Notes under the pieces: generated by a model
Told to the model about the DNA's origin: nothing
The model's input: the letters and a program-made list of their open reading frames with translations, nothing else
The model's database searches: none
Translations under genes and position numbers: made by a program
In this document: positions 1,181 through 23,515 of the stretch, in pieces
Numbering within the stretch: position 1 is the first letter of the stretch
How the letters are laid out: each line of letters begins with the position of its first letter
Assembly: GCA_035546895.1 (NCBI GenBank)
Contig: DASZVW010000040.1
Span: 1-36,857, forward strand
Source: Polyangia bacterium
GTDB taxonomy: Bacteria; Myxococcota_A; Polyangia; Fen-1088
DNA length: 36,857 nucleotides
Direction of reading: 5' to 3'

Positions 1181-1636
1181 CTACGCCGCCTTCTTGGAGA
1201 AGGGGACGGTCAGGACTGGACAGCCCGCGTGCTGGACGACCCGCTCGGCGACGCTCCCGAGCAGGGCGTGGGCGAGCCCGCGGCGGCCGTGCGTCCCGAG
1301 CACCACGAAGTCGGCCCTCGCCTCCCGGGCTTCCCGGACGATCTCCTGGGAGGCGCCGCCCTCGAGCATCCGGGTGTAGCAGCGCAGCCCCGCCGCGGTC
1401 GCCCGCTCGGCGCGGACGGCCAGCTCCCGATCGACGAACGCCGCCAGCGCCCCCGGGTTGCCGACGTAGTTGATCAGACCGTAGGGGAACTGGCTGGAGT
1501 CGCCGAGCTCCAGGACGTGCACCAGCTCCAGCGTCGCGCCCGTCAGCTTGGCCAGCTCGAGCGCGTGGCCGAACGCCTCGTCGCTCGCCTCCGAGAAGTC
1601 GGTCGCCACCAGAATCCTCTTCGTCGCGGCTGTCAT
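1181..1636 (-). CDS. Universal stress protein (UspA family)
   Basis: KRILVATDFSEAS ... FVVLGTHGRRGLAHALLGSVAERVVQHAGCPVLTV. The start is set at ATG 1636 (MTAATKR) rather than at 1666, because a -24/-12 element occupies 1650-1665. Confidence 0.85.
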   Translation of the reverse strand: MTAATKRILVATDFSEASDEAFGHALELAKLTGATLELVHVLELGDSSQFPYGLINYVGNPGALAAFVDRELAVRAERATAAGLRCYTRMLEGGASQEIVREAREARADFVVLGTHGRRGLAHALLGSVAERVVQHAGCPVLTVPFSKKAA

Positions 1637-1649
1637 GGTCCCTGATGAT

Positions 1650-1665
1650 TGCAACGTTCGGACCA
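1650..1665 (-). promoter_or_regulatory. Candidate sigma-54 -24/-12 promoter, TGGTCCGAACGTTGCA
   Basis: GG and GC have the canonical spacing (consensus TGGCAC-N5-TTGCW). The -12 C at 1651 is 15 nt from ATG 1636. Confidence 0.55.
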
Positions 1666-1757
1666 CGGATGGGGATTGGCCGACGCCTCCTCTCGAGGCA
1701 GCCCCCGCAGTGGCTGCGCCCCGTCTCGACGGCCACGCAGGATCTGCGCGCCGCTCG

Positions 1758-3370: not shown

Positions 3371-4087
3371 TCAGGCGGCAGCCGCCCCGGACCCGCCCTC
3401 CAGCGCGTCGCGAATCGCCGCCTTCAGGTTTAATTCGATCTGCCGGATCCGCTCCCCCGACACGGCCACGCGTCTCGCGACCGCGCGGAGCGGGATCGGC
3501 TCGTCGGCCAGCACCCGCTGCCGCAAGATCGTGAGGTCGCGGCCATTCAGGCGGCGTTCGAGACTCCTGGCCGCCGCGCGCGCCTTTCGGGTGAGCTCCG
3601 CCCTCTCGAGCCGGCGATCGGGCGCCGGGGCCGGATCCGCGATGAGCTCACCGAGGGGAGCACGGTCGCGCGCGACGGGTGCGTCCCAGGATACGTCCGT
3701 CGCACCGACGATACCGCGGAAGAAGGCCGCCCGTTCGGCCCGCGTCCGGACCGCACGCACGATCCGGACGTTATCCATCTTGTACTTGTGGATGTACGCC
3801 CGTATCCAAAAGGCAGCATAGGTCGAAAGCCGTGCCCCCTGCGCCGGATCGAAGCGGCGGAGCCCTTCGACGAGCCCCACACATCCCTCCGAGAAGAGAT
3901 CGTCGAAGCTCCGCCCGCGGGTCCTGTCGAGCTGGTGGGCGATCTTGGCCACCAGCCGCAGATTGGTCTCGACCAGCCTCTTCTCGATGCGCGGATCCTT
4001 GCTCTCGCGATATTCGACGATCAGCCGCAGTTGCTCGTCCGCGGGCAAGGGACGGGTGCCCGGATGACTCAAGAGTCGCTGGATCAT
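3371..4087 (-). CDS. Sigma-70 family alternative sigma factor, sigma-32 (RpoH)-like
   Basis: Region 2 reads DLFSEGCVGLVEGLRRFDPAQGARLSTYAAFWIRAYIHKY. It is followed by an RpoH-box-like segment (VRIVRAVRTRAERAAFFRG) and a region 4 HTH (PLRAVARRVAVSGERIRQIE). The ATG (4087-4085) overlaps the TGA (4086-4084) of the upstream ATPase. Confidence 0.85.
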   Translation of the reverse strand: MIQRLLSHPGTRPLPADEQLRLIVEYRESKDPRIEKRLVETNLRLVAKIAHQLDRTRGRSFDDLFSEGCVGLVEGLRRFDPAQGARLSTYAAFWIRAYIHKYKMDNVRIVRAVRTRAERAAFFRGIVGATDVSWDAPVARDRAPLGELIADPAPAPDRRLERAELTRKARAAARSLERRLNGRDLTILRQRVLADEPIPLRAVARRVAVSGERIRQIELNLKAAIRDALEGGSGAAAA

Positions 4088-6651
4088 GGTTCCGACCGAT
4101 GCAGCCCGGATGCCAACCGCATCCGCACTCCCGGCTTGTGAGCAGTCGCGTAGAACCACCGCTTCAGGATCTCGGCCGAGACCACATAGATGAGGACGAT
4201 AGCGGCGATGAGCAGCAGAACCATCGGCTGCGGCGGGGCGAGGCCGAGCGGCCGGGCGAGCGGGCTGAACGGGAGCAGCACGGTCGCGCCGAGACAGAAC
4301 GCGGTCGCCTTCAAGAGACTGCGCCCGGGCCGACTGCGGCCGAGCGGCAGCCGGCTCCTCACCACCAGGACCACCGAGGCGGCGGAGACGACCGACTCGA
4401 CGAACCAGGCCGTTCGGAAGGCGACCGGTCGCGCGCCGAAGAGGAACAACAACGCGCCGAACGTCAGGTAATCGAAGACCGAGCTCAAGAGGCCGAAGGC
4501 GACCATGAAGCGCCGCACGAGGCGGATGTCCCAGCGCCGGGGCCGATCGGTCGCCTCGTCGTCGACGTTGTCGGAGGCGATCGCCATCTCCGGAAGGTCG
4601 GTGAGCAGGTTGGTGAGCAGGACCTGCTTGGGGACCAGCGGCAGGAACGGAAGGAACAGCGATGCCCCCGCCATGCTGAACATGTTGCCGAAGTTCGCGC
4701 TGGTCGCCATGAACACATACTTGAGTGTGTTGGCGAAGGTGCGCCGCCCCTCGCGCAGCCCGCGGGCCACCACGCCCAGCTCCTTCTCCAGCAGCACGAT
4801 GTCGGCCGCCTCCCGCGCCACGTCGGCGGCGCCCGCCACCGAGATCCCCACGTCGGCGGCGTGGAGCGCTGGCGCGTCGTTGATGCCGTCGCCGATGAAC
4901 CCCACCACCTGGCCCGATCGGCGCAGCGCCGCCACGATCTGCTCCTTCTGGGTGGGCTCGACCTCCGCGAAGATGTCGACCGTGCGGCTCAGCGCGGGGA
5001 GCGCCGACGCCGCCGCCGTCCGCAGCTCGGCCCCGGTCTTGATGACCGCGTTCGGTAAGCCGATGGCCCGAGCGAGCGCCCGAGCGGCTACCGCGTTGTC
5101 GCCGGTGACGATCTTCACCGTGACACCCAGGCTCCCGAGCTCGTCCAGCGCCGCCCGGACGTCGGGCTTGGGCGCGTCGTGGAAGCGGACCAGCCCCGCG
5201 AAGGTCATCCCGCGTTCGTCTTCGCGGGTGACGCGCGCGGTTCCGGGGAGAGATCGATAGGCCACCGCGATGACGCGCAGGCCGTCCTCGCAAGACCGGT
5301 TGAACTCGGCCTCGATCGTGTCGCGCCGGCCGCCGAGGGGAACGACGCCGGCGGAGGTCTCGACGCTCTCGCAGGCCTCCAGCACCGTGGCGACCGCCCC
5401 CTTGGTGACGAGCAGACCGCCCTCGACGTCGAGGAGCACCGAGAGGCGGCGGCGGACGAAGTCGAAGGGGATCTCGTCGCGCTTCTGCGCCGGCTCGACC
5501 GGGCAGACTGCCAGCCCCCGCAGCGCCTCGTCGAGCGGGCTCGCGTAGCCGGTCTCGTGAGCCGCATTGAGGAAGGCGAGCCGGCGCACCCGCGCGCTCT
5601 CCCCGCCCTCGGCGTCGACCGCCCCCTCGAAGGTGAGCCGCCCCTCGGTCAAGGTGCCGGTCTTGTCGCAGCAGAGGACGGTCATGCTCCCGAGGTTCTC
5701 GATCGAGGCCAGCCGGCGGACGATGGTCTTCTCGGCGGCCATACGGGAGGCGCCGCGGGCTAGGTTGACCGCCACGATGGCCGGCAGGAGCTGCGGCGTC
5801 AGGCCGATCGCCAGCGTCAGCGAGAACATCAGCGACTCGAGCACCGGCCGATGGAAGGCCACGTTGGCGGCGAAGATGCCGAGCACGAGCAACAGCGTGA
5901 CCTCCATCAGGAGGTAGCCGAAGCGCCGCAGCCCCCGCTCGAAGTCGGTCTCCGGCGCGCGGGTGGCGACGTGGGCCGCGACGCGCCCCAGCTCCGTCCG
6001 CGGCCCCGTCCTGACGATGGCCATCCGCGCGGCGCCGCTGATGACGTGGGTCCCGAGGAACACCGCGCCCGTCCGTCGGGCGAGCGGCGTCTCCGCGGCG
6101 CTGGGGCCCGGCGCCTTCTCGGCCGGCTCGCTCTCGCCGGTCAGCGCCGCCTCGGAGACGAAGAGATCGCGCGCCTCCAAGAGGACGCCGTCACCAGGCA
6201 CGCTGCGGCCGGCGCTGAGCAAGGCGACGTCGCCGGGGACCACCTCGGCGATCGGGACCTCGCACGTCCGGCCGTCCCGCACCACCTGCGCCCGGGTCGC
6301 GACCTGGGCCAGGAGGCGCTGGACCGCCTGGGACGCGCCGTGCTCTTGCCAGACGCCCAGCGTCGCCGAGGCCGCCACGATGGCCAGCACGATGCCGGCA
6401 TCGCTGGCGTCGCCGAGAAAGAACGCCAGCACCGTCGCCGCGAGGAGGATGAGGACGATCGGGCTCCCGAGCTGGCCGACGATCAGCGCCGGCATGTCGG
6501 TCCGCCGGCGCGCAACCAGCAAGTTGGGACCCCTCTCGTGGAGGCGGCGCTCCGCCTCCTCCTGCCCCAGCCCCGAGGCTGCCGACCCCAGGCACTCGAG
6601 CACCTCGGCCGGCGCTTGCGCCCAGAAGGTGTCGCTCTCCCCGCCGCTCAC
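4084..6651 (-). CDS. mgtA: P-type ATPase, MgtA-like (type IIIB magnesium-importing family)
   Basis: Motifs seen: DLFVSEAALTGESEPAEK, the phosphorylation site CCDKTGTLTEG, TGDN and GDGINDAPAL. GTG start at 6651. The ion specificity is inferred from resemblance to the MgtA motif only. Confidence 0.85.
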   Translation of the reverse strand: MSGGESDTFWAQAPAEVLECLGSAASGLGQEEAERRLHERGPNLLVARRRTDMPALIVGQLGSPIVLILLAATVLAFFLGDASDAGIVLAIVAASATLGVWQEHGASQAVQRLLAQVATRAQVVRDGRTCEVPIAEVVPGDVALLSAGRSVPGDGVLLEARDLFVSEAALTGESEPAEKAPGPSAAETPLARRTGAVFLGTHVISGAARMAIVRTGPRTELGRVAAHVATRAPETDFERGLRRFGYLLMEVTLLLVLGIFAANVAFHRPVLESLMFSLTLAIGLTPQLLPAIVAVNLARGASRMAAEKTIVRRLASIENLGSMTVLCCDKTGTLTEGRLTFEGAVDAEGGESARVRRLAFLNAAHETGYASPLDEALRGLAVCPVEPAQKRDEIPFDFVRRRLSVLLDVEGGLLVTKGAVATVLEACESVETSAGVVPLGGRRDTIEAEFNRSCEDGLRVIAVAYRSLPGTARVTREDERGMTFAGLVRFHDAPKPDVRAALDELGSLGVTVKIVTGDNAVAARALARAIGLPNAVIKTGAELRTAAASALPALSRTVDIFAEVEPTQKEQIVAALRRSGQVVGFIGDGINDAPALHAADVGISVAGAADVAREAADIVLLEKELGVVARGLREGRRTFANTLKYVFMATSANFGNMFSMAGASLFLPFLPLVPKQVLLTNLLTDLPEMAIASDNVDDEATDRPRRWDIRLVRRFMVAFGLLSSVFDYLTFGALLFLFGARPVAFRTAWFVESVVSAASVVLVVRSRLPLGRSRPGRSLLKATAFCLGATVLLPFSPLARPLGLAPPQPMVLLLIAAIVLIYVVSAEILKRWFYATAHKPGVRMRLASGLHRSEP

Positions 6652-6678: not shown

Positions 6679-7053
6679 CTAAGCCGCCAGGGGAATCCCG
6701 CCCTCTTCCGGAACCGACGCCGGCGGCGTAGCGGGAAGCGACACGAGCCGGTGGACGCGGGGCGACGCGCTGAAGGGTCCCGCCGCGCAGGTGAACATGG
6801 TGACGCCCCAGGAGACCGCGACGACCTTCTCCAGCAGCGTCGAGGGGAAAATGAACCCGGTCAACGCCACCCAGCCGGCGACCATGCCGACCGCGACGGT
6901 GACACGCCGGCCGGCCAGCGAGAACGCCGACAGGACGACCGCCAGCGAACCGGCGATCAGGTCGTTGGCCGTGTGGGCGGGGCCGAGGGAGAGGATCAGC
7001 GCCGCGGTGGGCAACCAGGGGGCGATGAGGATGGCGAGCGCGCGAGAGAACAT
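6679..7053 (-). CDS. Small polytopic membrane protein (possibly SPW-repeat-like)
   Basis: 124 aa with 3-4 hydrophobic segments (ILIAPWLPTAALILSL, LIAGSLAVVLSAFSL, VGMVAGWVALTGFIF). An AGGAGG SD lies 5 nt before ATG 7053. The family assignment is weak. Confidence 0.55.
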   Translation of the reverse strand: MFSRALAILIAPWLPTAALILSLGPAHTANDLIAGSLAVVLSAFSLAGRRVTVAVGMVAGWVALTGFIFPSTLLEKVVAVSWGVTMFTCAAGPFSASPRVHRLVSLPATPPASVPEEGGIPLAA

Positions 7054-7084
7054 GGGGGCCTCCTATGGGTTCCCTCTCTCGCTG

Positions 7085-7100
7085 TGCAACCCGCGTTCCC
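7085..7100 (-). promoter_or_regulatory. Candidate sigma-54 -24/-12 promoter, GGGAACGCGGGTTGCA
   Basis: Correct GG-N10-GC spacing with a perfect TTGCA. It sits 32 nt upstream of ATG 7053, so the predicted leader contains the AGGAGG SD. It heads the membrane protein-mgtA-sigma-kinase gene string. Confidence 0.45.
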
Positions 7101-7206
7101 ATCGAAAGCCCGGCCCGGCGAATGGAAAGTCCGCATCCACTTCGTCGATGCCGCCCGCGCGCGCAGAAAGTGCGCGCCCGCCGCACGAACTCCGCATCCC
7201 CTAGCT

Positions 7207-7222
7207 TGGCATCGAGGTTGCG
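7207..7222 (+). promoter_or_regulatory. Candidate sigma-54 -24/-12 promoter, TGGCATCGAGGTTGCG
   Basis: Near-consensus match. The -12 C at 7221 is 14 nt from GTG 7235 of the CBS gene. Confidence 0.6.
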
Positions 7223-7234
7223 TTACCTCGGGCC

Positions 7235-7660
7235 GTGACCGCCCAACGCCCCACACTCCAATTCCCCGTCGTGCGCCAGTACATGACCGCCGCCCCGCAC
7301 ACCATCGGGCGGACCCGCTCTCTGTCCACCGCCCGTCGCCTGATGGTGGACCGGCACGTGCGCCACCTGCCGGTCCTGGACGGCGGCCGGGTGGTGGGCC
7401 TGCTCTCCGAACGCGACCTCTTCCTGGTGGAGTCGCTCCCCGGCGTCAACCCGACCGACGTTCGCGTCGAAGAGGCGATGGTCGAGGACGTCTTCACCGT
7501 GGCGCCCGACGCGCCGATCGGCGAGGCGGTCGAGACCATGATCGCGCGCAAGCTCGGGTCGGCGGTGGTCAGCGATGGCGAGCGGGTGGTCGGCGTCTTC
7601 ACCACCATCGACGCACTACAGGCGCTGCACGAGCTGCTCGAGGCGCCAGGAGGCGAATGA
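7235..7660 (+). CDS. CBS-domain pair protein
   Basis: Two CBS repeats: VRQYMTAAPHTIGRTRSLSTARRLMVDRHVRHLPVLDGGRVVGLLSERDL and VEEAMVEDVFTVAPDAPIGEAVETMIARKLGSAVVSDGERVVGVFTTID. Confidence 0.85.
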   Translation: MTAQRPTLQFPVVRQYMTAAPHTIGRTRSLSTARRLMVDRHVRHLPVLDGGRVVGLLSERDLFLVESLPGVNPTDVRVEEAMVEDVFTVAPDAPIGEAVETMIARKLGSAVVSDGERVVGVFTTIDALQALHELLEAPGGE

Positions 7661-9068: not shown

Positions 9069-11822
9069 TCAGATCTTCCTTTCTGCGCGGATCACGCCGT
9101 CTTCCGCGGCGCCCACGGTGAATCCGAGCCGGGCACAGAGGCGCTGCATGTGTACGTTGGCCTCCAGGACGTCGGCGTAAATCCGTGCGAGGCCCTCCTG
9201 CCGAGCGACCTCGACCAGGCGCGAGAGGAGCTGGCCCCCCACCCCCTGCCCCTGCCAGGGATCGGCCACCAGGAGCGAGAACTCGGCCCCCGTCGCACCC
9301 CGTATGCGTTCGCGGCTCAGGCGGCCAAGCGCGATGATCTGCCGCTGGCCCGGGGACTGCCGCTCGGCCACCAGCGCCAGCTCGCGGTCGTAGTCGGTAA
9401 AGCAGATCCGGACCAGCCGCTCGTGGGCGGTCCGTTCGCCGAGCTCGAGCCCCGCCAGGTAGCGCATGCGGACGCTCTGCTCACTCAGCGTCTGGTGGAA
9501 AGCGACCATCGCCGGCTCGTCCTCGGGTCGGATCGGACGGATCGCGATCGGCGAACCGTCGCGCAGCTCGCCGTGCGAGACGTACGCCGCCGGGTAGGGC
9601 CGGATGGCCGGCCTCGGCAGGCGCTCGTCCGGCGTGTCGGGATCGGCCAGGACCACGCGGGCGTCCAGGGCCACGAGCTCGCCGGCGGACACGAGCAATG
9701 GGTTGACGTCGATCTCCCGGATGCGCGGCTGCTCGATCACGAGGTCGCCGAAGCGAACCAACAGGGCTGCGAGCGCCTCGAGGTCGACCGAGGCCCGGCC
9801 GCGGACGCCCCGCAGGGCCTGGTAGATCTGCGTCTGCTCCATGGCGCGCCGGGCCAGCGTGGTGTTGAGCGGCGGCAGGGCCAGCGCGCGATCCCGGAAC
9901 ACCTCGACCAGCTCGCCGCCGGTGCCGAACAAGATCACCGGCCCGAGCTGCGCGTCGATGCTGCTCCCCAGGATCAGCTCGTAGCCGCCGTGCCGTTCGA
10001 CGCAGGGCTGCACCGTCACGCCGAGGAAGCTTCCGGCCCCCACCTTCGCCGTCACGCTCTCCCGGATGCCGCGAAAGGCGGTTGCCACGGCATTTGCGTC
10101 GCCGAGTCCGAGTCGGACGCCCCCCACGTCGGTCTTGTGGGTCACCGTCCGCGACCAGAGCTTCACCGCGACCGGGAACCCCAACGTTCGCGCCGCCTCT
10201 ACCGCCTCCGCCTCGTCGCGCGCGACCCGGATCGGGGTCACCGGGATCCCGTAGCTGGCGAGCAGCGCCTTCGACTCCTGCTCATCGAGCAGGGTCCGCC
10301 GCTCGGCGTGCGCTGCGCCGATGATCGCCCGCGCGCCAGCCGGCTGCGTCTCGCCGTCGGGCTGCCGCACCGGCGTCTCGTAGAGGCCGCGGAGGTTGTA
10401 GGCGTAGCGCCACATCTGGCAGAAGGTCCGCGCCGCGTCGTCGGGGAACTGGAAGCTCGGGATCCCGGCGCGGTTGAGGATGTCGGCCCCGGCCGCCACG
10501 TCGGCGCCCCCCATCCAGCTCGCCAGGACCGGCTTCCCTTCGATGTGCGCGTGCTTGGCGAGCGCCTCCGCCGTGAGCGTCGGATCGGTCATGTCCTGCG
10601 GCGTGAGGATCGCGAGCAGCCCGTCACTGGCGCCGTCGTCCGCGGCGAGCTGCAGCGCGCTCGCGTAGCGCGCCGGATCGGCGTCGCCCAGGATGTCGAG
10701 CGGGTTGGCGTGGCTCCAGGCGGCCGGCAGGATCGCGTCGAGGCGAGCGAGCGTCTCGCCGGAGAGCGCCGCCAGTTCGCCCCCGCCCGCCACCAGCGCG
10801 TCGGTGGCCAGGACGCCGGGGCCCCCCGCGTTGGTGACGATGGTCAGCCGCCCGCTCCGGGGCCGCGGTTGGCGGCCGAGAACGTCCGCCAGCCGGAAGA
10901 CGTCGCCGATGTCGGTGACCCGCAGGACCCCGCTGCGCCGGAAGGCGGCGTCCAGCACCTCGTCGGACCCGGTGAGCGCGCCGGTGTGCGAGGCGGCCGC
11001 CTTGCTGGCCGCCGCCGAACGGCCCGCCTTGATGACGATGATCGGCTTCGTGAGCGCCACCTCGCGCGCCGCCGACAGGAACGCCCGCGCATCGCCGATC
11101 GACTCCATGTAGAGCACGATGGCGCGCGTCCGTGGATCGTCGCCCAGGTAGTCGATGAGGTCGCCCCAACCGACATCGAGCATTGAACCGAGCGACACGA
11201 AGGCGCTGAACCCCACGCGCTCGCGCAAGCTCCAATCGAGGATCGCCGTCAGCAGCGCGCCGCTCTGGCTGAGGAAGGCCACGTTCCCCGAGAGGGCCAT
11301 GCCGGCGGCGAAGGTGGCGTTGAGCCCCGTCAGCGGGCTCATCACGCCGAGGCAGTTCGGACCCACGACCCGCATCCCGCCCCGCTGCGCCTCCGCGCGC
11401 ACCTGCCGCTCCAGCTCGGCGCCGGCGGGACCTGTCTCGTGAAAGCCGGCAGAGATGATCACCGCAGCGGGTACCGCCCGGTCCACGCACTCGCCGATCA
11501 CCTTAGGCACTGTGGCGGCCGTGGTCACGACGACCGCCAGGTCGACCGCGCCCGGCACGTCGGCGATCGAACGGTAGGCCTTGATTCCGAGCACGCTGTC
11601 GCGCTTCGGGTTGACCGGATAGACGGTGCCGCCAAAGGGGCTGGAGATCAGGTTGTGGAGCAACGTTCGCCCGACGCTGCGGGGCGTTTCGCTGGCCCCG
11701 ATGACCGCCACCGAGCGGGGGCGGAAGAAGGGATCGAGCGGGTGTTGCTTCGCCTGCTTGAGGACGTCGTGGGCCAGGCCCGTCGTGCGCCCGTCTGCTT
11801 GCGCCGGAGGAGGAGTTGGCAT
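9069..11822 (-). CDS. pat: Pat/PatZ-type protein lysine acetyltransferase (ADP-forming acetyl-CoA synthetase-like domains plus a C-terminal GNAT)
   Basis: The N-terminus has a CoA-binding motif ([19 protein letters not shown]...VYPVNPK). Succinyl-CoA-synthetase-like and ATP-grasp regions follow. The C-terminal GNAT reads [49 protein letters not shown]. The start is set at ATG 11822; the ORF extends to 12011. Confidence 0.85.
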
Positions 11823-11835
11823 CGAGCCGTTCGAG

Positions 11836-11851
11836 TGCAAGCGTTGCGCCA
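11836..11851 (-). promoter_or_regulatory. Candidate sigma-54 -24/-12 promoter, TGGCGCAACGCTTGCA
   Basis: Near-consensus match. The -12 C at 11837 is 15 nt from ATG 11822 of pat. Confidence 0.6.
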
Positions 11852-11858
11852 CTGCACG

Positions 11859-11874
11859 TGGCCAGGATCTTGCC
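11859..11874 (+). promoter_or_regulatory. Candidate sigma-54 -24/-12 promoter, TGGCCAGGATCTTGCC
   Basis: Correct spacing. The -12 C at 11873 is 14 nt from ATG 11887. It lies back-to-back with the pat element, 7 bp away. Confidence 0.55.
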
Positions 11875-11886
11875 TCGTCGAGAAGC

Positions 11887-12195
11887 ATGAAAACCTCCAA
11901 GCCGCTGCTGCGCATTGTCTGCGTCGGGGTTGCACTCCTCTCCGGCTGCGCGACGGCGCCCCGGGCGCGTCCCGAATCAGCGCCGCGCGTCCCTGACTCC
12001 GCGCCCGACAAGGTCGCAGCTCAGCGCGCCGCCGCTGGTCTTCACCTCGAGGAGGAGGACGACCGGTGGGGATTCGAAGCGGCGCGCGAGCTGAAGCAGC
12101 GGAAAGAACAGAAGACGGCGGCGCAGCAGCCCCCGCCTCCCGCCGGTCCCGGCCCCGTCGACCTCGAACAGCCCGCCGACGCCGGCGTCCGCTGA
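11887..12195 (+). CDS. Small lipoprotein of unknown function
   Basis: Signal peptide with lipobox ([21 protein letters not shown]). The mature part is charged and Pro-rich. GC3 is high. Confidence 0.6.
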
Positions 12196-12297
12196 GTCCC
12201 CAGATGTGTCGTGAGCGTGCGAAGCAACTTCTGCGGGGCTCGTTGCGACTCGCGCAGGTTTTGCGCGGACAGGCGGGTTAGGCCCGATGGTTCTGCC

Positions 12298-12313
12298 TGG
12301 CCCGTCGCTTGAA
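12298..12313 (+). promoter_or_regulatory. Weak sigma-54-like element, TGGCCCGTCGCTTGAA (GA replaces the -12 GC)
   Basis: It has the same geometry as the stronger sites: 14 nt from the -12 position to GTG 12326. It shares GTCGAGA downstream of the -12 with the lipoprotein site. Confidence 0.3.
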
Positions 12314-12325
12314 TAGGTCGAGACC

Positions 12326-13462
12326 GTGCGCGGAATTCTCAAGATCGCCTACAAGCTCCTGGTCAACGACAAGGGGAAGTTCGCCGCGCTGCTGATGGGG
12401 ATCACCTTCGCGGTGTTCCTGATGATCCAGGTGACCTCGATGTTCGCCGGGATGATGCTGAAGGCCTCGGCGACGGTCACCAACACCGGCGCCAAGATGT
12501 GGGTGATGGATCGTGCGGTCACGAACGTGGCCAGCAGCATCCCGATGCCCGACTACGTGCTCGATGCGGTCCGCAGCATGTCGGGCGTCCGCTACGCCGT
12601 GCCGCTCTACTCGGGCGCCGGACTCGCGCGGTTGCGGAGCGGCGCCTATCAGGCAGTGACGGTGCTGGGGCTCGACGACACCAGCCTGTTCGGACGCCCC
12701 AAGCTGATAGATGGCCGCATCGAGGACATCTACGCGGAGAACGGCTTCATCGTCGTCGCCGACGAGGAGCTCCCAAAGCTCGACAACCCCAAGATCGGCA
12801 CCGAGTTCGAGATCAACGACAACCGCGGCGTGATCGTCGGCCTGGCCAAGGTCCCCGCCAGCGGCCTGTTCGGGATCCCGACGCTCTACACGACCTTCAG
12901 TCGGGCGGTCCAGTACATCCCGTCGATGCGCTACACCGTCTCCTACATCCTCGTCGAGCCGACGAGCGACCGGACGGTCCCGCACATCAAGCAGGAGGTC
13001 GCCAAGCTCGGCTACGAGGCGCTCACCGAGCAAGAGTTCATTGACAAGATCACCACCTTCTACAAGTACCGGACGGGGATGGGGATGAACATCCTCATCA
13101 TGACGCTGATCAGCTTCATCGTCGGCCTCTCGATCTCGGGGCAGACGTTCTACACCTTCACGCTCGAGAACCTTGACAAGTTCGGGGCGCTCAAGGCCAT
13201 CGGCGCCAAGCGAAACGAGCTGGTGGCGATGATCCTGCTTCAGGCGGGCGTCACCGCCATCGCGGGGTACGGCCTCGGGATCGGGCTCTGCGCGCTGCTC
13301 ATCGCGGTCGCCAAGCTACGGCTCCCCGACTACGCCTCGGTCATCACCTTCGGCAACCTCGGCGTGGCGTTCGGCATGGTGCTGGTGATCGCCGGGATCT
13401 CCAGCTACATCGCCGTCCGCAAGGTGCTGAAGATCGAACCCTTCGAGATCTTCCGGAGCTGA
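12326..13462 (+). CDS. devC: ABC exporter permease, DevC/FtsX-like family
   Basis: 378 aa. An N-terminal TM helix is followed by a large periplasmic domain and three C-terminal TM helices with the FtsX motif region (FGALKAIGAKRNELVAMILLQAG). GTG start. Confidence 0.85.
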   Translation: MRGILKIAYKLLVNDKGKFAALLMGITFAVFLMIQVTSMFAGMMLKASATVTNTGAKMWVMDRAVTNVASSIPMPDYVLDAVRSMSGVRYAVPLYSGAGLARLRSGAYQAVTVLGLDDTSLFGRPKLIDGRIEDIYAENGFIVVADEELPKLDNPKIGTEFEINDNRGVIVGLAKVPASGLFGIPTLYTTFSRAVQYIPSMRYTVSYILVEPTSDRTVPHIKQEVAKLGYEALTEQEFIDKITTFYKYRTGMGMNILIMTLISFIVGLSISGQTFYTFTLENLDKFGALKAIGAKRNELVAMILLQAGVTAIAGYGLGIGLCALLIAVAKLRLPDYASVITFGNLGVAFGMVLVIAGISSYIAVRKVLKIEPFEIFRS

Positions 13463-16986: not shown

Positions 16987-17660
16987 ACCGAGCGGGCGTG
17001 GCGGACGTCCTGACCACGGACGTGATAGATGGTCATCTCGGCGATGTTCGCCACGTGATCGGCCATCCTCTCGATCCGCTGGGCGAAGAGAAGAAGGGCC
17101 ACGCCGCGGTCGATCGCCTCTGGAGCGGACTCCATCTCCGTCTTCACCTCGGCGCAGAGCCGGCGCACGGGCTCCCCGAGAGCCGCAGCATTGGCCAGAA
17201 TCTCCGCCGCCTCGGCCGCATCATTGGCGACGAAGGCGTCGAGCACCTCCCGCAAGAGCTCCTGCGCCCTCTCGGCCAGCCCCGGGATGGCCGACGCCGC
17301 GGGCAGCGGCGGCTGTCCGGCGAGCAACCGGACGCCCTCCGCCATGTTCACCGCCAGGTCCCCGATCCGCTCGAGGTCGGTCACCATCTTGAGCGTCGAC
17401 GCCACGAAGCGCAGGTCCGACGCCTCGGGCTGGTAGAGCGCCAGAACGCGGATGCACTGCTCGTCCACCGCGAGCTCCATCTGGTTCACCGCCCTGTCGG
17501 CGTCGATCACGCGGCCCGCGAGCTCCACGTCCCGTTGTACGAAGGCGCGAACCGAGTCGCTCACGTGCGCGTCGACGAGGTGTCCCATCGCGAGGACCTG
17601 CTCGTTGATGGCTCGCAGCTCGCTTTCGAGGCTGGCGTTCGTGTGGGGTCTGTTGGTCAT
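16983..17660 (-). CDS. phoU: Phosphate signalling complex protein PhoU
   Basis: Two PhoU repeats (INEQVLAMGHLVDAHVSDSVRAF...DADRAVNQMELAVDEQCIRVLALYQPEASDLRFV...DLERIGDLAVNMAE, and a second repeat ending RIERMADHVANIAE). Confidence 0.9.
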   Translation of the reverse strand: MTNRPHTNASLESELRAINEQVLAMGHLVDAHVSDSVRAFVQRDVELAGRVIDADRAVNQMELAVDEQCIRVLALYQPEASDLRFVASTLKMVTDLERIGDLAVNMAEGVRLLAGQPPLPAASAIPGLAERAQELLREVLDAFVANDAAEAAEILANAAALGEPVRRLCAEVKTEMESAPEAIDRGVALLLFAQRIERMADHVANIAEMTIYHVRGQDVRHARSV

Positions 17661-17672
17661 GGCATCCGGAGA

Positions 17673-17688
17673 TGCAATCGGCGCACCG
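17673..17688 (-). promoter_or_regulatory. Candidate sigma-54 -24/-12 promoter, CGGTGCGCCGATTGCA
   Basis: Correct spacing with a perfect TTGCA. The -12 C at 17674 is 14 nt from ATG 17660 of phoU. Confidence 0.5.
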
Positions 17689-18488: not shown

Positions 18489-18947
18489 CTACGCCGAGCC
18501 GCTCGCGGGGACCACCAGGACCGGGCACTCGCCGTGCTCGACGACCTTCTCGGCGACGCTCCCGATGAAGGCGTGAGCGAGACCGCGCCGCCCGTGCGTC
18601 CCCATCACGATGAGGCCAGCGCCGCTGCGGCGCACCCTCTCGATGATACTCGTCGAGGACCGCCCGAACTCCGAGGCGCTGGTGCAGGAGACGCCCGCCC
18701 GCCGCACCTCGGCCACCACCCGCTCGAGCCTTTCGGCCGTCCGTGCCACCACACGTTCGACCGCGATCGGTCTGGACACGACGTCCACCGGCGGTGGCAA
18801 TAGCAGCGCAGGGTCCGGGTCGACGTGAAAGACTTCGATCGCGGCATGAAATGCCTGCGCCATCCGGACCGCGGTCCGCATCGCCACGGCGGACGCCTCG
18901 GAAAAATCGGTCGGGACCAGGATCAGCTTCAGATTGTCGAAATTCAT
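18489..18947 (-). CDS. Universal stress protein (UspA family)
   Basis: LKLILVPTDFSEAS ... LIVMGTHGRRGLAHAFIGSVAEKVVEHGECPVLVV. The start is set at ATG 18947 (MNFDNL) with a GGAG SD. Confidence 0.85.
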   Translation of the reverse strand: MNFDNLKLILVPTDFSEASAVAMRTAVRMAQAFHAAIEVFHVDPDPALLLPPPVDVVSRPIAVERVVARTAERLERVVAEVRRAGVSCTSASEFGRSSTSIIERVRRSGAGLIVMGTHGRRGLAHAFIGSVAEKVVEHGECPVLVVPASGSA

Positions 18948-18968
18948 AGCGGCTCCGAGCAGCAACGT

Positions 18969-18984
18969 TGCAGCGCCTGTGCCA
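18969..18984 (-). promoter_or_regulatory. Candidate sigma-54 -24/-12 promoter, TGGCACAGGCGCTGCA
   Basis: Perfect TGGCAC with a CTGCA -12. It sits 22 nt upstream of ATG 18947, so the predicted ~11-nt leader contains the GGAG. Confidence 0.6.
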
Positions 18985-19100
18985 GCAAATGCCCTCCCCC
19001 GAGCGGAGGTTCATCGAACGACGCCAGCAATCGGTGCATGGGTGCCGACCTCTCCCGCAAAGTTTTCGCGGTTCCGCACGACGTTGAGCCGCCTCTGCGC

Positions 19101-19116
19101 CGGCACGGCGGATGCT
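19101..19116 (+). promoter_or_regulatory. Candidate sigma-54 -24/-12 promoter, CGGCACGGCGGATGCT
   Basis: Correct GG/GC spacing. The -12 C at 19115 is 17 nt from ATG 19132. Confidence 0.4.
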
Positions 19117-19131
19117 CCGTAAGCGACCGAG

Positions 19132-19815
19132 ATGCGACCTTCCCCGCGCAACGGCGCCTCCAAAACGACGACGGCGCTCTGCCCGATGCCCGACACCCGA
19201 TCGCCGATCCGCCTTCCGAAGCCGAGCCTGGCGCCGTTCGGCTCGATCGCCGACGCGCTTCGGCGGCGACGAACCACCCGCTCGATCGGCGCCCGCCAAC
19301 TCGGCGCACAGCTCCTCTCCAACGTCCTCTTCGCGGCCTGCGGCGTGAATCGCAAGCGCGGCCCTTTCGGCGCTCCCGGCGTCACGGCGGCGTCCGCCAG
19401 CAACTCCCAGGAGGTCGACGTCTACGTCGCCCTCGAGGACGGGGCCTATCGCTTCGACACCCGTTACCACCTGCTGGTGCCCGTCACCAACGAGGATCTC
19501 CGCCTGCTGGCCTACACGCCCCACCAACCGCTCCTGTCGCCGGACGCGCCCGTGCAGCTGATCTTCGTCGTCGACCTCGGCAAGCTGGAGCACACCTCCG
19601 GCTTCGAAGAGCCCGGTCTGCACGACCCCGAGGTGCAGAAGTCCTACTATTACGTCGACACCGGCGTCATCGCCGGGAACGTCTACCTGTTCGCGGCCGC
19701 CGAGGGGCTGGCCTGCTGGTTCCACAACTGCGACCGGCGCGCCCTGGCCAGACGCCTGCGACTCGGGAAACACCAACGCGTCCTGTTCGCGCAGACCGTG
19801 GGGTATCGATCATGA
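19132..19815 (+). CDS. Nitroreductase-family protein
   Basis: SIADALRRRRTTRSIG...LLSNVLFAACGVNR...AASASNSQEVDVYVALEDGAYRFD...YVDTGVIAGNVYLFAAAEGL. The alternative start ATG 19186 is equally compatible with homologues. 19132 is favoured by high GC3 and by the promoter geometry. Confidence 0.8.
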   Translation: MRPSPRNGASKTTTALCPMPDTRSPIRLPKPSLAPFGSIADALRRRRTTRSIGARQLGAQLLSNVLFAACGVNRKRGPFGAPGVTAASASNSQEVDVYVALEDGAYRFDTRYHLLVPVTNEDLRLLAYTPHQPLLSPDAPVQLIFVVDLGKLEHTSGFEEPGLHDPEVQKSYYYVDTGVIAGNVYLFAAAEGLACWFHNCDRRALARRLRLGKHQRVLFAQTVGYRS

Positions 19816-20337: not shown

Positions 20338-21618
20338 CTACGGTTCGCCCGCGCCGTACGGCGAGACCGGCGGTCGGACGAGGCAGGTGGTCGGCGAACG
20401 ATCGCTGACGGCCACCATTCCAGGCTCGAGGTCGAAGCTCCGGATCTCGATGAGATCCCCGTCCAGGACCCCGACCTCGACGGCCTTCCGGTAAGGGCGT
20501 CCTCTTTCGTCCGTGAGCCAGATCGACGCCGCCTGCCCCTGCGGACGCGTCCCGCTCACGAAGGGCGTGAATCCGACGGGCGCCCCGTACTCGACGGCCG
20601 CCTCGGGCACAGCCAACGCGTCCGCCGGACTGGTCGCGGAAAGCTCCACCAGCGCGGACATGCCGACATGGAGTCGACCTTCGGGATTGGGGACCGAGAG
20701 GACGACGGTGTAGTAAGCGGGGCTGCGGACCGCGTCGACGAGCGGCACGATCTCGCGCACCGAGGCAGTGAGCTCGTCGCGGCCGAACGCCGGGGTCGTG
20801 AACCGCGCGTCGTCGGGCCGGATGGAGGTCACGTACCGCTCGTCGACCTGGACCTCGAGCCGCAGCCCGCGGAGGTCTGCCGCGATCACGAAGAGCGGCG
20901 GTGCCGGCGGGCTGGCCGAGATGGTTTCGCCGACATCGATCATCCGTCCCAACACCACGCCCGAAAGCGGAGATCGGATGGTGCGCTTGGCCAGGACACT
21001 TCGCGCGCGCCGCAGATCGGCGGCCCGCCGCTTGGCGCGGGCGGTCGCCTGCATGAGGTCCAGTTGGGCGTCCCCGGCTTCCCCGTCGAGCAGTTGGTTC
21101 GCCGGCCAGTCCTCGGGTCCAACGCCGTCGGCGCGGAAGCCGTCCAGGATGTCTCCGAGCGCGCGTTCTGCCTTCACTTGGGCGACCGCGGCCTCCGCGA
21201 CCTGCGCCGCGGCCCCCTCGACGCCCGCCTCCTGATCGTCGCCGTCCAACCGGGCCAGGATCTGCCCGGCCGCGACCCTGTCGCCCGGAACGACGTCGAC
21301 CTCGACGACACGGCCCGCGCCCTCGAATCCGACGCGGACCATTCTGGTCGCGCGCAAGACGCCCGGGAGGCGAAGGACTCCATCCAAGGCGCCTCGGGTC
21401 ACGATCGCGGTCTGGCAGGGGCGCGCGACCTCGAGCTTCGTCGTCTGCGCTCGCCGCAGCGCCAGGCCCCCGGCGATCAGCCCGAGGGCACCGGCGACGA
21501 CCACCGCCCGGGTGAACGCCCTCCGCCCCGGGGGCGAGCTGGGCGTCGGCGACAGCCGGGGCGCGATCGAAACGGGCGCGACGCGGTGAAGAGGTCGATG
21601 GTGGTGAACGGTTGCCAT
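20338..21618 (-). CDS. Periplasmic adaptor / membrane fusion protein (HlyD-RND MFP family), orphan
   Basis: TM anchor (AVVVAGALGLIAGGLAL), lipoyl motif (GAGRVVEVDVVPGDRVAAGQILARLD), coiled-coil and a second half (IRSPLSGVVLGRMIDVGE). The start is set at ATG 21618. Confidence 0.8.
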   Translation of the reverse strand: MATVHHHRPLHRVAPVSIAPRLSPTPSSPPGRRAFTRAVVVAGALGLIAGGLALRRAQTTKLEVARPCQTAIVTRGALDGVLRLPGVLRATRMVRVGFEGAGRVVEVDVVPGDRVAAGQILARLDGDDQEAGVEGAAAQVAEAAVAQVKAERALGDILDGFRADGVGPEDWPANQLLDGEAGDAQLDLMQATARAKRRAADLRRARSVLAKRTIRSPLSGVVLGRMIDVGETISASPPAPPLFVIAADLRGLRLEVQVDERYVTSIRPDDARFTTPAFGRDELTASVREIVPLVDAVRSPAYYTVVLSVPNPEGRLHVGMSALVELSATSPADALAVPEAAVEYGAPVGFTPFVSGTRPQGQAASIWLTDERGRPYRKAVEVGVLDGDLIEIRSFDLEPGMVAVSDRSPTTCLVRPPVSPYGAGEP

Positions 21619-21630
21619 GCCCCATCGAGG

Positions 21631-21646
21631 ATCACGTCGCGTGCCA
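21631..21646 (-). promoter_or_regulatory. Weak sigma-54-like element, TGGCACGCGACGTGAT (perfect -24, degenerate -12)
   Basis: Same 14-nt geometry to ATG 21618 as the stronger sites. The conserved GC of the -12 is missing. Confidence 0.25.
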
Positions 21647-21779
21647 GGTGGTGCGTCGCACCTCCCCACGCGCGAGCGGCACCGGACGCAGTCGCACAGT
21701 TTGCGCCGCGTCGGGGAGCGCGACGCATATTCTGCAGATCGCTCGCTCCCTCACTCTCGTCGACGGCGTCGAAGCGCAA

Positions 21780-21795
21780 GGGAACATTCCTTGCA
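21780..21795 (+). promoter_or_regulatory. Candidate sigma-54 -24/-12 promoter, GGGAACATTCCTTGCA
   Basis: It has the same GGGAAC-N5-TTGCA form as the 7085-7100 site. It lies about 80 nt upstream of the CheB-like start. Confidence 0.45.
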
Positions 21796-21874
21796 CGCGG
21801 TCTGGCCGACCATTCGAGCCAGCCCCGACCTTCCGGAAACCTACCCGTTCGGATTGTGAACCGAGAAGGGGTAT

Positions 21875-22564
21875 GTGATGCGAACGTCCCGTCGAAGACG
21901 GCTCCAGCCTGACGTGAGCAAGACAAACGTGCCGCCTCGACACCTGATCGCGATCGTGGGCTCGAGGGGAGGCCTGAAGCCCTTGGTGACGATCGTTCGC
22001 GACCTGCCGCTCGATCTGGATGCGGCCGTCGTCGTGTTGATTCACCGAGGCGCTACAACGAAAAGCCATCTCGCGGAGATCCTCTCACGTGCCACCTCCT
22101 TGCCGGTCGCGTTCGCGGTCGACGGCGAGCGCCTCGAGAGAGGCCGGATCTACGTCGTACCACCTGGCGACCGCCACGCCCTGATTCAAGGCCGAACGAT
22201 CCGTCTCGTCGCTGCCCCTCGGGTCCACTATCATCGCCCGGCGGGCGATCCTCTCCTCTATTCGGCCGCCGCCGCGTTCGGCCCCGACGCCATCGGCGTG
22301 ATCTTGAGCGGGATGGGACGAAATGGCGAGGCTGGGGTCGCCGCCATCAAGCAAGGCAGGGGCAAAGTGTTCGTGCAGTCCGTCGTCGAGGCCGAGTACC
22401 CCAGCATGCCGAGACACGCCATGGCCGCAGCCGAGCCAGATGCGTGCCTGATGGCCGCCGAGATTGCGCCGCGGCTGGCGGCTCTGTGCGCGCCTGCAGT
22501 TGTCCCGTTCGAGGCGGCGGACAGAGCTGAGCGCCCACGTCGTCGCGAGCACAGGTCGGCTTGA
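21875..22564 (+). CDS. CheB-type methylesterase-domain protein without a receiver domain
   Basis: IAIVGSRGGLKPL (Ser motif), VVVLIHRG (His motif) and GVILSGMGRNGEAGVAAIKQGRGKVFVQ...PSMPRHA. A GAGAAGGGG SD precedes GTG 21875 / ATG 21878. Confidence 0.8.
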   Translation: MMRTSRRRRLQPDVSKTNVPPRHLIAIVGSRGGLKPLVTIVRDLPLDLDAAVVVLIHRGATTKSHLAEILSRATSLPVAFAVDGERLERGRIYVVPPGDRHALIQGRTIRLVAAPRVHYHRPAGDPLLYSAAAAFGPDAIGVILSGMGRNGEAGVAAIKQGRGKVFVQSVVEAEYPSMPRHAMAAAEPDACLMAAEIAPRLAALCAPAVVPFEAADRAERPRRREHRSA

Positions 22565-22688
22565 GATCCCCGCCCGCCAGATGACGCAGACGCGTCCGAA
22601 GGCGTTGCCCGGCCGACCCGGAGGAGACCTGAAACCGAGCCACTCTGGCGGACCGCCTGAAGCGGATAACGATTGGACGGCGGCGCGC

Positions 22689-22886
22689 TCAGGTCGTTTT
22701 GAGTTCAGGCGTTAGCGCGAGCGTCGCTCGGCCCAGGCTCTCTTCTATTCGGGAGAGGTGTTTCTCGACTTCGGCGTCGACTGCTCCGACGCCGTCGAGA
22801 TGCTTGCGAAGAAGATAGACGGATGTGCGGGCCACCGCGAGCCCCTCGCGTACGACGCGCACCCATTCATCCGACGACGACGCCAT
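22689..22886 (-). CDS. Hypothetical small helical protein (65 aa)
   Basis: ATG-initiated ORF with moderate GC3 in the lower-GC islet. I recognise no family. Confidence 0.3.
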   Translation of the reverse strand: MASSSDEWVRVVREGLAVARTSVYLLRKHLDGVGAVDAEVEKHLSRIEESLGRATLALTPELKTT

Positions 22887-23104
22887 CAGTCCAAAGCCTT
22901 GCGAGGTGACGATCGCTCATCGGCGACGACATCTCGGCTCACTGTTCGCGACATCGTCGACTTCACCTTACGCCTCGTTCGACGCGACATACACCTTACG
23001 AGGAACGGCAATCGACCTCGTACAATGTCTTACGCCCGGCTCGCGATTACGGGTTCACCTGAGACACCCGATCTCCCTGATGAGCGGGCTTTCACGCGAT
23101 GGAT

Positions 23105-23308
23105 CTACGCACGCTTGCCGCGGCGAATCATCAAGTGAAGGAGGCAGGGCCCCCACAGTCCCATCGCTATCGGCAAAAGCCCAATGACCGCGACGACACG
23201 CCCGCCTATCCCCCTCGCTCCCAAGCCGAGATGAATGAGTACGACGCCCAGCGCGACCCGCAGCCCACGACCGAAGGGACGCTCCATGAACTCGAAGACT
23301 TTGTTCAT
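23105..23308 (-). CDS. DUF2892 (YgaP-like) small membrane protein
   Basis: Two TM helices and a C-terminal GLWGPCLLHLMI motif resembling the conserved G-x-C-P-x-Y region of DUF2892. GGAG lies 8 nt before ATG 23308. Confidence 0.6.
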   Translation of the reverse strand: MNKVFEFMERPFGRGLRVALGVVLIHLGLGARGIGGRVVAVIGLLPIAMGLWGPCLLHLMIRRGKRA

Positions 23309-23332
23309 CGTCTTTTCTCCGTCACGGATAAT

Positions 23333-23348
23333 TGCAACGGCGATGCCG
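23333..23348 (-). promoter_or_regulatory. Candidate sigma-54 -24/-12 promoter, CGGCATCGCCGTTGCA
   Basis: Correct spacing with a perfect TTGCA. It sits 25 nt upstream of ATG 23308, so the predicted leader contains the GGAG. Confidence 0.5.
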
Positions 23349-23515
23349 TGGTCAGATCCGCGTGACGCCTCGCCCGATTTCTCGTCGACTGTGCGAAACC
23401 GCGCAAAGGATGCCGGCAAGGACGGCAACCGTGTAGAAGCTGCGCGCTCGCCGCTAGGGAAGCCCGACCGGTCGAAATCGTGCGCCCGGCATCATTGGCT
23501 CTGCTGCGGAGATCG

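Follow-up and report, generated by a model that had tools for sequence, protein, structure and literature searches.

The stretch of DNA analyzed here (hereafter the window) spans positions 1 to 36,857 of contig DASZVW010000040.1 from a Polyangia bacterium (assembly GCA_035546895.1), has a G+C content of 70%, and harbors a gene island in which sigma-54-type (-24/-12) motifs lie at a fixed distance of 13–14 nucleotides (nt) from the start codon of the downstream gene. This register is real, and stronger than reported in the original prediction, an earlier reading of the same sequence that had listed eight motif-to-start distances. These motifs probably are sigma-54 promoters that give leaderless mRNAs (0–3 nt of leader) and that represent a conserved alternative to versions of the same promoters in which the message carries a Shine-Dalgarno (SD) sequence. 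Sigma-54 dependence, the position of the transcription start, and leaderless translation are what we infer from sequence. In this model, the motifs would serve a hypoxia and stress regulon of a Polyangia-like myxobacterium, and the probable activator would be an NmpR-like enhancer-binding protein of the NtrC family, recognizing GCGCA-N5-TGCGC a few tens of bp upstream. As sigma-54 RNA polymerase starts ~11–15 nt past the C of the -12 element, the transcript would begin at the start codon or 1–3 nt before it. A -12 GC located 13–14 nt before the start codon leaves no room for an SD sequence, and translation would hence follow a leaderless route, with the ribosome recognizing a start codon at the 5' end. 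Other promoters of this type form a second class, with 20–60-nt leaders that contain an SD sequence.

Spacing is given throughout as the number of nt that separate the C of the -12 GC, or the equivalent position, from the first base of the start codon. Counted this way, all eight spacings listed earlier were found to be correct when the sequence was read again (Table 1), and the three longer-spaced sites to which an SD sequence had been attributed do carry one, AGGAGG ahead of position 7053 (32 nt) and GGAG ahead of 18947 and 23308 (22 and 25 nt, respectively). The matrix scan added a short-spacing site missing from that list, in front of the ECF sigma gene, and three more sites are present on the same contig to the left of the window, namely those of a YceI gene (14 nt), of a second CBS gene (13 nt), and of a PEP-synthase-like gene, the last with a 28-nt leader containing GAAGGAAGG. 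The motifs have the GG-N10-GC geometry and the TGGCAC-N5-TTGCW consensus and are oriented towards genes. Deviant -12 elements are seen in devC (TTGA) and in the gene for a membrane-fusion protein (MFP; GTGA), where a good -24 element is paired with a poor -12 element, and the phoU motif reads CGGTGC-N5-TTGC.

The exact string TGGC-N7-TTGC occurs three times in the window, where 0.76 matches are expected, and all three copies sit 13–14 nt before a start codon. At a threshold of at least 9.5 bits, the matrix identified 23 matches, compared to 7.9 ± 2.6 in 200 dinucleotide-preserving shuffles; eight matches had an ATG or GTG at 13–14 nt, whereas the shuffled sequences contained 0.26 such matches on average and never more than 2. 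When only matches of at least 11.5 bits are considered, nine out of ten lie within ~85 nt upstream of gene starts. A 13.2-bit match at 27414(-) is intragenic and out of frame with the next ATG. No known RNA element was found in the window by Rfam at gathering thresholds. We also considered that the motifs could be ECF-sigma promoters, given a GGAAC-like -35 element and the ECF sigma gene of the island; this reading was rejected because the conserved blocks are only 5 nt apart and because the transcription start would fall within the coding region.

The register is found in relatives as well (loci used for comparison are indicated by L numbers). We applied an automatic criterion, taking for each match of at least 11 bits the first ATG or GTG that opens an open reading frame (ORF) of at least 80 codons. 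In 65 high-GC loci (599 kb), 70 of 169 matches had such a codon at 13–14 nt, and the reversed-matrix control gave 1 of 98. In 80 loci from Myxococcota genomes (830 kb), gathered with a CBS alignment, the codon was at 13–14 nt for 58 of 198 matches, and at 15 nt for six more, compared to 3 of 141 with the reversed matrix (Fisher P = 3e-12); 89 loci from other phyla (788 kb) yielded 2 of 107 (Fisher P = 2e-10 vs Myxococcota). Forty-one of the 80 Myxococcota loci have at least one short-spacing site, and the labels of short-spacing loci include Polyangia, Polyangiaceae, Myxococcaceae, Archangiaceae, Kofleriaceae, and Haliangiales. The distances are bimodal, with a sharp peak at 13–14 nt and a broad class at 20–60 nt. 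The short design also precedes genes for a GroEL paralogue from a soil metagenome (L116:6525-7750; CGGCATGGCTGTTGCT followed by 13 nt), FtsH (L156), ATP synthase beta (L087), a HemN-like radical SAM protein (L183), and NtrC-type activators (L144, L222), and the short class hence reaches beyond small stress proteins.

Individual gene families tell a similar story. Pat identified as closest relatives an "uncultured Myxococcales" metagenome-assembled genome (MAG), at 75% identity, and one from Polyangia, at 68%, on which basis the source is treated as a Polyangia-like myxobacterium. L082 is a MAG that encodes an ECF sigma factor 65% identical to that of the window. Its orthologues of USP (13 nt; N-terminus MTSAVRRILVATDF), CBS (13 nt, GTG), ECF sigma, and a secreted protein (14 nt for each of the last two) retain motif and spacing, and the SPW orthologue retains its ~32-nt leader with AGGAGG. 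The ECF sigma orthologues of L082, L088, and L152 are at 13–14 nt with conserved N-termini, and those of the lipoprotein in L152, L155, and L100 are at 13 nt each. The devC orthologue in L002 (TGGCCCGCCCTTTGA) keeps the non-consensus TGGCCC-N5-TTGAA at 14 nt and the same N-terminus, VRG(I/V)LKIAYKLL. An MFP orthologue at 13 nt was found in L154 by the motif scan only; its product begins MGTVTAHR...RVAP, compared to MATVHHHR...RVAP in the window. No orthologue of the N-terminal regions of nitroreductase, PhoU, or MFP was detected by tblastn across all fetched loci, and no motif is present upstream of pat in L002 and L003, because pat follows a USP gene there. All 14 orthologous SPW sequences (13 distinct contigs, as L082 and L151 are the same contig) keep the ~32-nt leader and AAAGGAGG. 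Approximately 28 of 33 CBS orthologues from soil metagenomes have TGGCAC-N5-TTGC 13–14 nt (in one case 15) before an ATG or GTG, with a spacer whose sequence varies freely while motif and spacing stay. In Myxococcota genomes, 25 of 47 motif-bearing CBS orthologues are at 13–14 nt, and ~9 have a long leader with GAGG, including those of Minicystis rosea, Sorangium So ce388, and Archangium minus. Each gene family thus keeps its promoter class within the clade, and the occurrence of CBS orthologues in both forms implies that the same gene switches architecture between lineages.

Sequence features were tallied over 124 distinct short-class and 92 long-class sites. In the short class, G is found in 97–100% of the sites at both GG positions and GC in 100%, flanked by T (69–74%), C (75–81%), A (65–73%), and TT (63–95%); conservation is confined to the -24 and -12 blocks and does not extend to the spacer. 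The complementary distribution of SD sequences proposed for the window extends to this larger set, with GGAG or GAGG in 16 of 124 short and 47 of 92 long sites (P = 1e-9). The lack of an SD sequence in the short class was thus borne out, and the leader length, originally put at 2–5 nt, is revised here to a predicted 0–3 nt. The base preceding the start codon is C in ~80% of the short sites, compared to 60% of the long class (P = 0.006), and in long-leader promoters purines peak 14–16 nt after the -12 C, with the pyrimidine-purine step most common at 13/14. Both features weakly suggest that the A or G of the start codon is itself the first transcribed base, and not a base 2–3 nt upstream. In the textbook geometry of sigma-54 promoters, the C is at -12 in glnAp2 and at -13 in Sinorhizobium meliloti nifH, which would imply a leader of 1–3 nt. 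In Campylobacter jejuni, mapped sigma-54 starts are located 8–13 nt after the TTGCTt motif, that is, 10–15 nt after the C (PMC3847290). Operon-internal and non-sigma-54 genes of the window mostly have a clear GGAGG-type SD sequence, indicating that this organism is not generally SD-free and that the short class is a distinct subset. A perfect TATAAT is found 7 nt upstream of the GTG at 25014 (25014-25040 (-)), the start of a DUF2204/AbiEii-like nucleotidyltransferase gene, which suggests that sigma-70-type leaderless transcripts are also present here.

Whether the adjacent codons are true translation starts is central to this interpretation. The ORFs of devC, CBS, phoU, and nitroreductase offer no possible start ahead of the in-register codon. 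The earlier preference for position 1636 as the USP start is upheld by orthologue N-termini and by the deposited annotation (CAZMRV010000306.1, from MAG GCA_964568375.1), and that for 11822 as the pat start by the onset of homology, as the region shared with 80 Pat homologues begins 13–16 residues after Met-11822, and Sorangium Pat starts with MPDPLPTTDRAHDVL at the equivalent place. The nitroreductase start, 19132 or 19186, is uncertain; neither codon has an SD sequence, and the deposited annotation uses 19186. The lipoprotein begins with a signal peptide and lipobox, which must be N-terminal and thus support the start at 11887, and the PhoU domain begins at residue 23 from the ATG at 17660. 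In the GroEL paralogue, whose N-terminus reads MPAKHLLFRTEARAKLLRGV, the Cpn60 domain runs from residue 23, and collinearity with GroEL extends to the first residue; in NtrC-type regulators of related loci, the receiver domain runs from residue 8, and FtsH, ATP synthase beta, and several signal peptides fit as well. In the CBS family, codons upstream of an invariant internal methionine, Met17, differ mostly synonymously (QFPVVRQ), and translation must hence begin upstream of Met17. Start codons in the short class are ATG in 105 of 124 cases (85%) and GTG in 15%. The short-spacing design seems to mislead gene callers. In the deposited annotation, in fact, the lipoprotein gene (11887-12195) is omitted; Pat starts at 11888, a choice that adds 22 residues and covers the pat and lipoprotein promoters; MFP starts at 21504, while the L154 orthologue N-terminus supports 21618; and internal ATGs are used for YceI and the second CBS gene (L231:18338-18347 and 19033-19051). 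On this single contig, the annotation thus lacks one gene and has at least five starts that appear to be wrong; the register, if confirmed, would offer a rule for fixing gene starts in GC-rich myxobacteria.

Other explanations for these findings need to be weighed. Because TGGC- and TTGC-like strings are common at 70% G+C, and a consensus pattern with one mismatch allowed matches the window 50 times, one could argue that the register arose by chance, as an artefact of GC-rich DNA, or through start codons chosen to fit. We consider this extremely improbable, as the 13–14-nt peak is absent from dinucleotide shuffles, from reversed-matrix scans, and from other phyla, and the criterion was automatic. 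It is also very unlikely that the sigma-54 promoters are real and that translation starts at a downstream codon, behind ordinary, SD-poor leaders. Such a scenario is in line with the downstream ATGs that the deposited annotation takes for nitroreductase, MFP, YceI, and the second CBS gene, with the many candidate starts of high-GC ORFs, and with the invariant Met17 of CBS proteins. Yet the in-register codon is conserved in orthologues while neighboring bases vary, this codon coincides exactly with well-established N-termini (GroEL, receiver domains, FtsH, signal peptides), the CBS sequence upstream of Met17 changes synonymously, and the downstream alternatives lack an SD sequence; furthermore, an in-frame start at exactly 13–14 nt would be expected by chance at ~2% of sites, compared to the 30–40% seen.

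Alternatively, the main transcripts might come from upstream sigma-70 or operon promoters, with the sigma-54 holoenzyme, which forms a stable closed complex, or another protein covering the region of the start codon and acting mainly as a roadblock, operator, or insulator. Sigma-54 does bind without firing, and many intragenic sites have been described in E. coli (PMC4591121). SD-like strings in a few short spacers (L002 devC, YceI) would be usable only on read-through mRNA, and the ATPase gene runs into the ECF sigma gene that follows it. This possibility appears unlikely, however, given that most sites head divergent or intergenic units with no room for another promoter, such as the 64-bp gap between pat and the lipoprotein gene; that orthologues in which the same motif lies at a variable 20–60 nt, with an SD sequence, show the motif behaving as a promoter; that enhancer-type sites accompany the motifs; and that reporter assays have shown the orthologous promoters of Myxococcus xanthus to depend on sigma-54. 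A true leader of 2–5 nt, produced from a canonical start and translated in a manner unlike classical initiation at a 5'-terminal AUG, is a sub-variant of our preferred explanation that sequence alone cannot separate from it, and we regard it as rather unlikely. The textbook transcription start, 11–12 nt after the C in nifH and glnAp2, speaks in its favor, as do the 15–16-nt tails of nitroreductase and several loci, which would leave 3–5 nt of leader. The sharp peak at 13–14 nt, the step from C to purine, and the long-leader purine peak at 14–16 nt, on the other hand, fit a start on the codon, and the C. jejuni starts span 10–15 nt after the C. A more ambitious version of the leaderless sigma-54 model is a tentative possibility that we rate as doubtful: Myxococcota would possess a dedicated enhancer-dependent class in which the first base of the start codon is also the first base transcribed, making a whole hypoxia and stress regulon leaderless. 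Orthologues that toggle between leaderless and SD-led states suggest that the choice is selected. A preference of stress-state ribosomes for leaderless mRNAs could, as part of this same doubtful version, be one example of a reason, and control of transcription and translation would be coupled in a single 30-bp element.

We acknowledge that several points weigh against leaderless sigma-54 transcripts. The position-weight matrix was home-made from the published consensus, and devC, MFP, and phoU are weak matches to it among the sites of the window. Some short spacers, those of L002 devC, L082 ECF sigma, and YceI, hold GGAG-like strings; the ECF sigma gene is possibly translated from the ATPase operon transcript; and Krishnan et al. 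are said to have found in 2010 that added 5' nucleotides lower leaderless translation in E. coli. The loci were gathered via homologues of the island's genes, so that our results may describe one regulon and not all sigma-54 promoters. No short-spacing site was found in loci from cultured Sorangium, Minicystis, Archangium, and Nannocystis, and in cultured-strain loci CBS genes are SD-led wherever the motif is present.

Table 1. Sigma-54-type motifs (probable promoters) and NmpR-type palindromes identified in the window
Feature	Sequence	Element position	Feature extent (strand)	Relation to start codon or promoter	Score (bits)
USP promoter	TGGTCCGAACGTTGC	1651-1665	1634..1665 (-)	14-nt spacer, ATG 1636	13.7
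ECF sigma promoter	TGGCATCCGGGCTGC (TGGCATCCGGGCTGCA)	4101-4115	4085..4115 (-)	13-nt spacer, ATG 4087	13.4
SPW-like membrane protein promoter	GGGAACGCGGGTTGC	7086-7100	7051..7100 (-)	32-nt leader with AGGAGG, ATG 7053	
CBS-domain gene promoter	TGGCATCGAGGTTGC	7207-7221	7207..7237 (+)	13-nt spacer, GTG 7235	
pat (acyl-CoA synthetase/GNAT) promoter	TGGCGCAACGCTTGC	11837-11851	11820..11851 (-)	14-nt spacer, ATG 11822	14.3
Lipoprotein promoter	TGGCCAGGATCTTGC	11859-11873	11859..11889 (+)	13-nt spacer, ATG 11887	
devC-like ABC permease promoter	TGGCCCGTCGCTTGA	12298-12312	12298..12328 (+)	13-nt spacer, GTG 12326	
phoU promoter (weak motif)	CGGTGCGCCGATTGC	17674-17688	17658..17688 (-)	13-nt spacer, ATG 17660	9.7
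Third USP promoter	TGGCACAGGCGCTGC	18970-18984	18945..18984 (-)	22 nt with GGAG, ATG 18947	15.7
Nitroreductase promoter	CGGCACGGCGGATGC	19101-19115	19101..19134 (+)	16-nt spacer, ATG 19132 (alternative 19186)	11.8
MFP promoter	TGGCACGCGACGTGA	21632-21646	21616..21646 (-)	13-nt spacer, ATG 21618	9.7
Motif ahead of CheB-like gene	GGGAACATTCCTTGC	21780-21794 (+)		83 nt upstream of ATG 21878; long-leader class	12.2
67-aa membrane protein promoter	CGGCATCGCCGTTGC	23334-23348	23306..23348 (-)	25 nt with GGAG, ATG 23308	13.0
Two NmpR-type palindromes (putative enhancer)	CCGCAGTGGCTGCGC, ACGCAGGATCTGCGC		1705..1749	15 nt apart; 39 and 69 bp upstream of USP -24	
Perfect NmpR-type palindrome	GCGCAGAAAGTGCGC		7161..7175	Between divergent SPW and CBS; 31 bp from CBS -24, 60 bp from SPW -24	
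NmpR-type palindrome	GCGCATTGTCTGCGT		11910..11924	58 bp upstream of pat -24, within lipoprotein coding sequence	
Perfect NmpR-type palindrome	GCGCAGGTTTTGCGC		12252..12266	31 bp upstream of devC -24	
NmpR-type palindrome	TCGCACAGTTTGCGC		21692..21706	45 bp from MFP promoter, 73 bp from motif 21780-21794	
Weaker NmpR-like sites		23401-23415, 23431-23445		15 nt apart; by 67-aa membrane protein promoter	

The identity of the likely activator is suggested by palindromes resembling GCGCA-N5-TGCGC, which we refer to as NmpR-type sites. In M. xanthus, this consensus has been defined experimentally as the binding site of NmpR, an NtrC-like regulator, with tandem sites often 14–15 nt apart, a spacing matched by the 15 nt between the paired sites of USP and those at 23401/23431, and NmpR together with sigma-54 drives CBS, USP, and hemerythrin genes under hypoxia, with expression abolished when the sigma-54 site is mutated (PMC11841059). 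Eight of the 18 NmpR-type sites of the window are located 31–73 bp upstream of -24 elements, an interval that makes up 6.7% of the sequence (P ~1e-5, or ~1e-4 without the site overlapping the pat promoter). Such palindromes, at which binding is predicted, accompany seven to eight promoters, with one good site each for CBS, devC, pat, and MFP; none was found upstream of the ECF sigma, phoU, third USP, and nitroreductase promoters. NtrC-type proteins with Sigma54_activat domains are encoded in the related loci L144 and L222, with a fragment in L002, and the short-spacing design is also found ahead of several activator genes in related loci. Neither rpoN nor an activator gene is present in the 45.7 kb seen from this contig; the presence of rpoN in Myxococcota is established. 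Based on its genes and predicted sites, the island resembles an enlarged homologue of the NmpR regulon in M. xanthus, and this likeness provides indirect experimental backing for the sigma-54 assignment.

Some of the promoters deserve separate mention. Those of pat and the lipoprotein gene stand back-to-back, with start codons 64 bp apart (gap 11823-11886), so that enhancer sites must sit in the neighboring coding sequences, as is the case for the one at 11910-11924. Their -24 elements are only 6–7 bp apart, and it may be doubted that two holoenzymes fit simultaneously. That the region at 11837-11873 is a single palindromic operator was considered and rejected, as the pat and lipoprotein motifs agree only at sigma-54 consensus positions. 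The P-type ATPase gene contains the ECF sigma motif at its 3' end, and its stop codon is overlapped by the ATG at 4087 (ATGA). The sigma factor is thus possibly made both from the ATPase operon transcript and from its own activator-dependent promoter (window 4084-4115); the overlap and the internal motif make two sources of this protein possible, with one sigma factor controlling another. With regard to YceI (L231:18338-18377 (-)), AAGGAG is found between the -12 element and the first ATG, 10 nt before a second ATG three codons on. The predicted sigma-54 transcript would lack this SD sequence, whereas read-through mRNA would carry it, and two modes of translation are therefore possible. The third USP gene (ATG 18947) is a member of the short SD-led class.

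As for gene content, Pfam searches of the window identified three USP proteins, a CBS protein, two hemerythrins (one fused to YceI), a nitroreductase, a P-type ATPase, an ECF sigma factor, an AAA_33 kinase-like protein, Pat, PhoU, VIT1, a DevCAB-type efflux system with outer-membrane factor, and a second MFP. The left flank (L231:11300-20456) encodes a PEP-synthase-like enzyme, glycogen phosphorylase, a Zip transporter, and a second CBS protein (two to three CBS overall). Together, window positions 1-21750 and this flank resemble in gene content the NmpR regulon of M. xanthus and the mycobacterial DosR dormancy regulon. The segment at 21750-24360, which could be a later insertion into the island, has a G+C content of 63%, compared to ~70%, and contains an orphan CheB-like methylesterase gene, short ORFs without Pfam match, and the gene for the 67-aa membrane protein. 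A cluster encoding a circularly permuted ATP-grasp protein, an Alpha-E protein, a transglutaminase-like protein, and a DUF2126 amidoligase occupies 26447-36857, where no strong sigma-54 motif precedes any gene.

Sigma-54 promoters and leaderless mRNAs are each known; as far as the literature could be surveyed, their combination appears to be undescribed. The claim of novelty made in the original prediction stands to this extent, as we found no report of sigma-54-dependent leaderless transcripts, in a literature coverage that is incomplete and in which absence is not proof. In genome-wide start-site studies of S. meliloti, B. japonicum, Leptospira, and C. jejuni, sigma-54 promoters and leaderless transcripts are dealt with independently of each other, a domain-wide survey of ORF-adjacent motifs recovered only -10 and ribosome-binding-site motifs (PMC12340547), and in myxobacteria a leaderless sigma-A transcript has been proposed for pexR (PMC12754779). 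If confirmed, our findings would define a tightly switchable promoter class that needs no 5' untranslated region (UTR), would bear on leaderless translation in stress and hypoxia programmes beyond Actinobacteria and Deinococcus, and would suggest small activator-gated expression cassettes for synthetic biology. Orthologues that exist in leaderless and SD-led forms represent a natural experiment.

Comparison with known systems helps place these promoters. The canonical sigma-54 promoters (glnAp2 and nifH, and mxan_4236, katB, and ahpC of M. xanthus) have the same consensus and stress-related cargo, and upstream enhancer sites of the kind predicted here. The sites of the window ahead of 7053, 18947, and 23308 are of this SD-led type, whereas the short class would differ in having no leader. 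The published 4236proR primer for mxan_4236, the CBS orthologue, reads ...TGCCAGGAGTACCGCC-ATG and shows AGGAG 8 nt before the ATG; mxan_4236 is thus SD-led, while the CBS gene of the window has only 13 nt in total. The mxan_3966 primer ends ...GTGCC-ATG, and the class of this gene is undecided, as the primers give only ~20 nt. Published M. xanthus primer sequences had no match among the collected loci, and a protein search with the tandem USP of a "Myxococcaceae" MAG returned seven matches with no M. xanthus orthologue evident. The NmpRSTU oxygen-utilization regulon of M. xanthus shares with the island CBS, USP, and hemerythrin genes, and its sigma-54 dependence and enhancer consensus are predicted for the island as well (PMC11841059, where neither promoter-to-start distance nor leaderless transcripts are discussed). 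The window, however, has no genes for NmpR, NmpS, NmpT, or NmpU, the island is much larger (Pat, P-type ATPase, nitroreductase, PhoU, VIT1, ECF sigma, efflux), and several of its promoters have no recognizable NmpR site. Many sigma-54 promoters of myxobacteria have been called "intragenic", among them those of M. xanthus genes targeted by Nla28 and Nla6 (PMC9765219), whose motifs likewise lie inside annotated coding sequence; they are described as either far upstream with long 5' UTRs or operon-internal, whereas in the window part of the intragenic placement is due to over-extended start calls, with the annotated Pat ORF swallowing two promoters. Some published myxobacterial "intragenic" sigma-54 promoters may similarly be an annotation effect. 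The closest parallel in architecture is provided by the sigma-70-type leaderless promoters of Deinococcus-Thermus and Actinobacteria, which likewise have a fixed, short distance between element and start codon and no SD sequence (PMC12340547), are used in a lineage-specific manner by a sizeable fraction of genes, and also lead to mis-called starts. The promoters of the window differ from these in that they carry a -24/-12 motif instead of TANNNT, and would be silent without an ATP-hydrolyzing activator.

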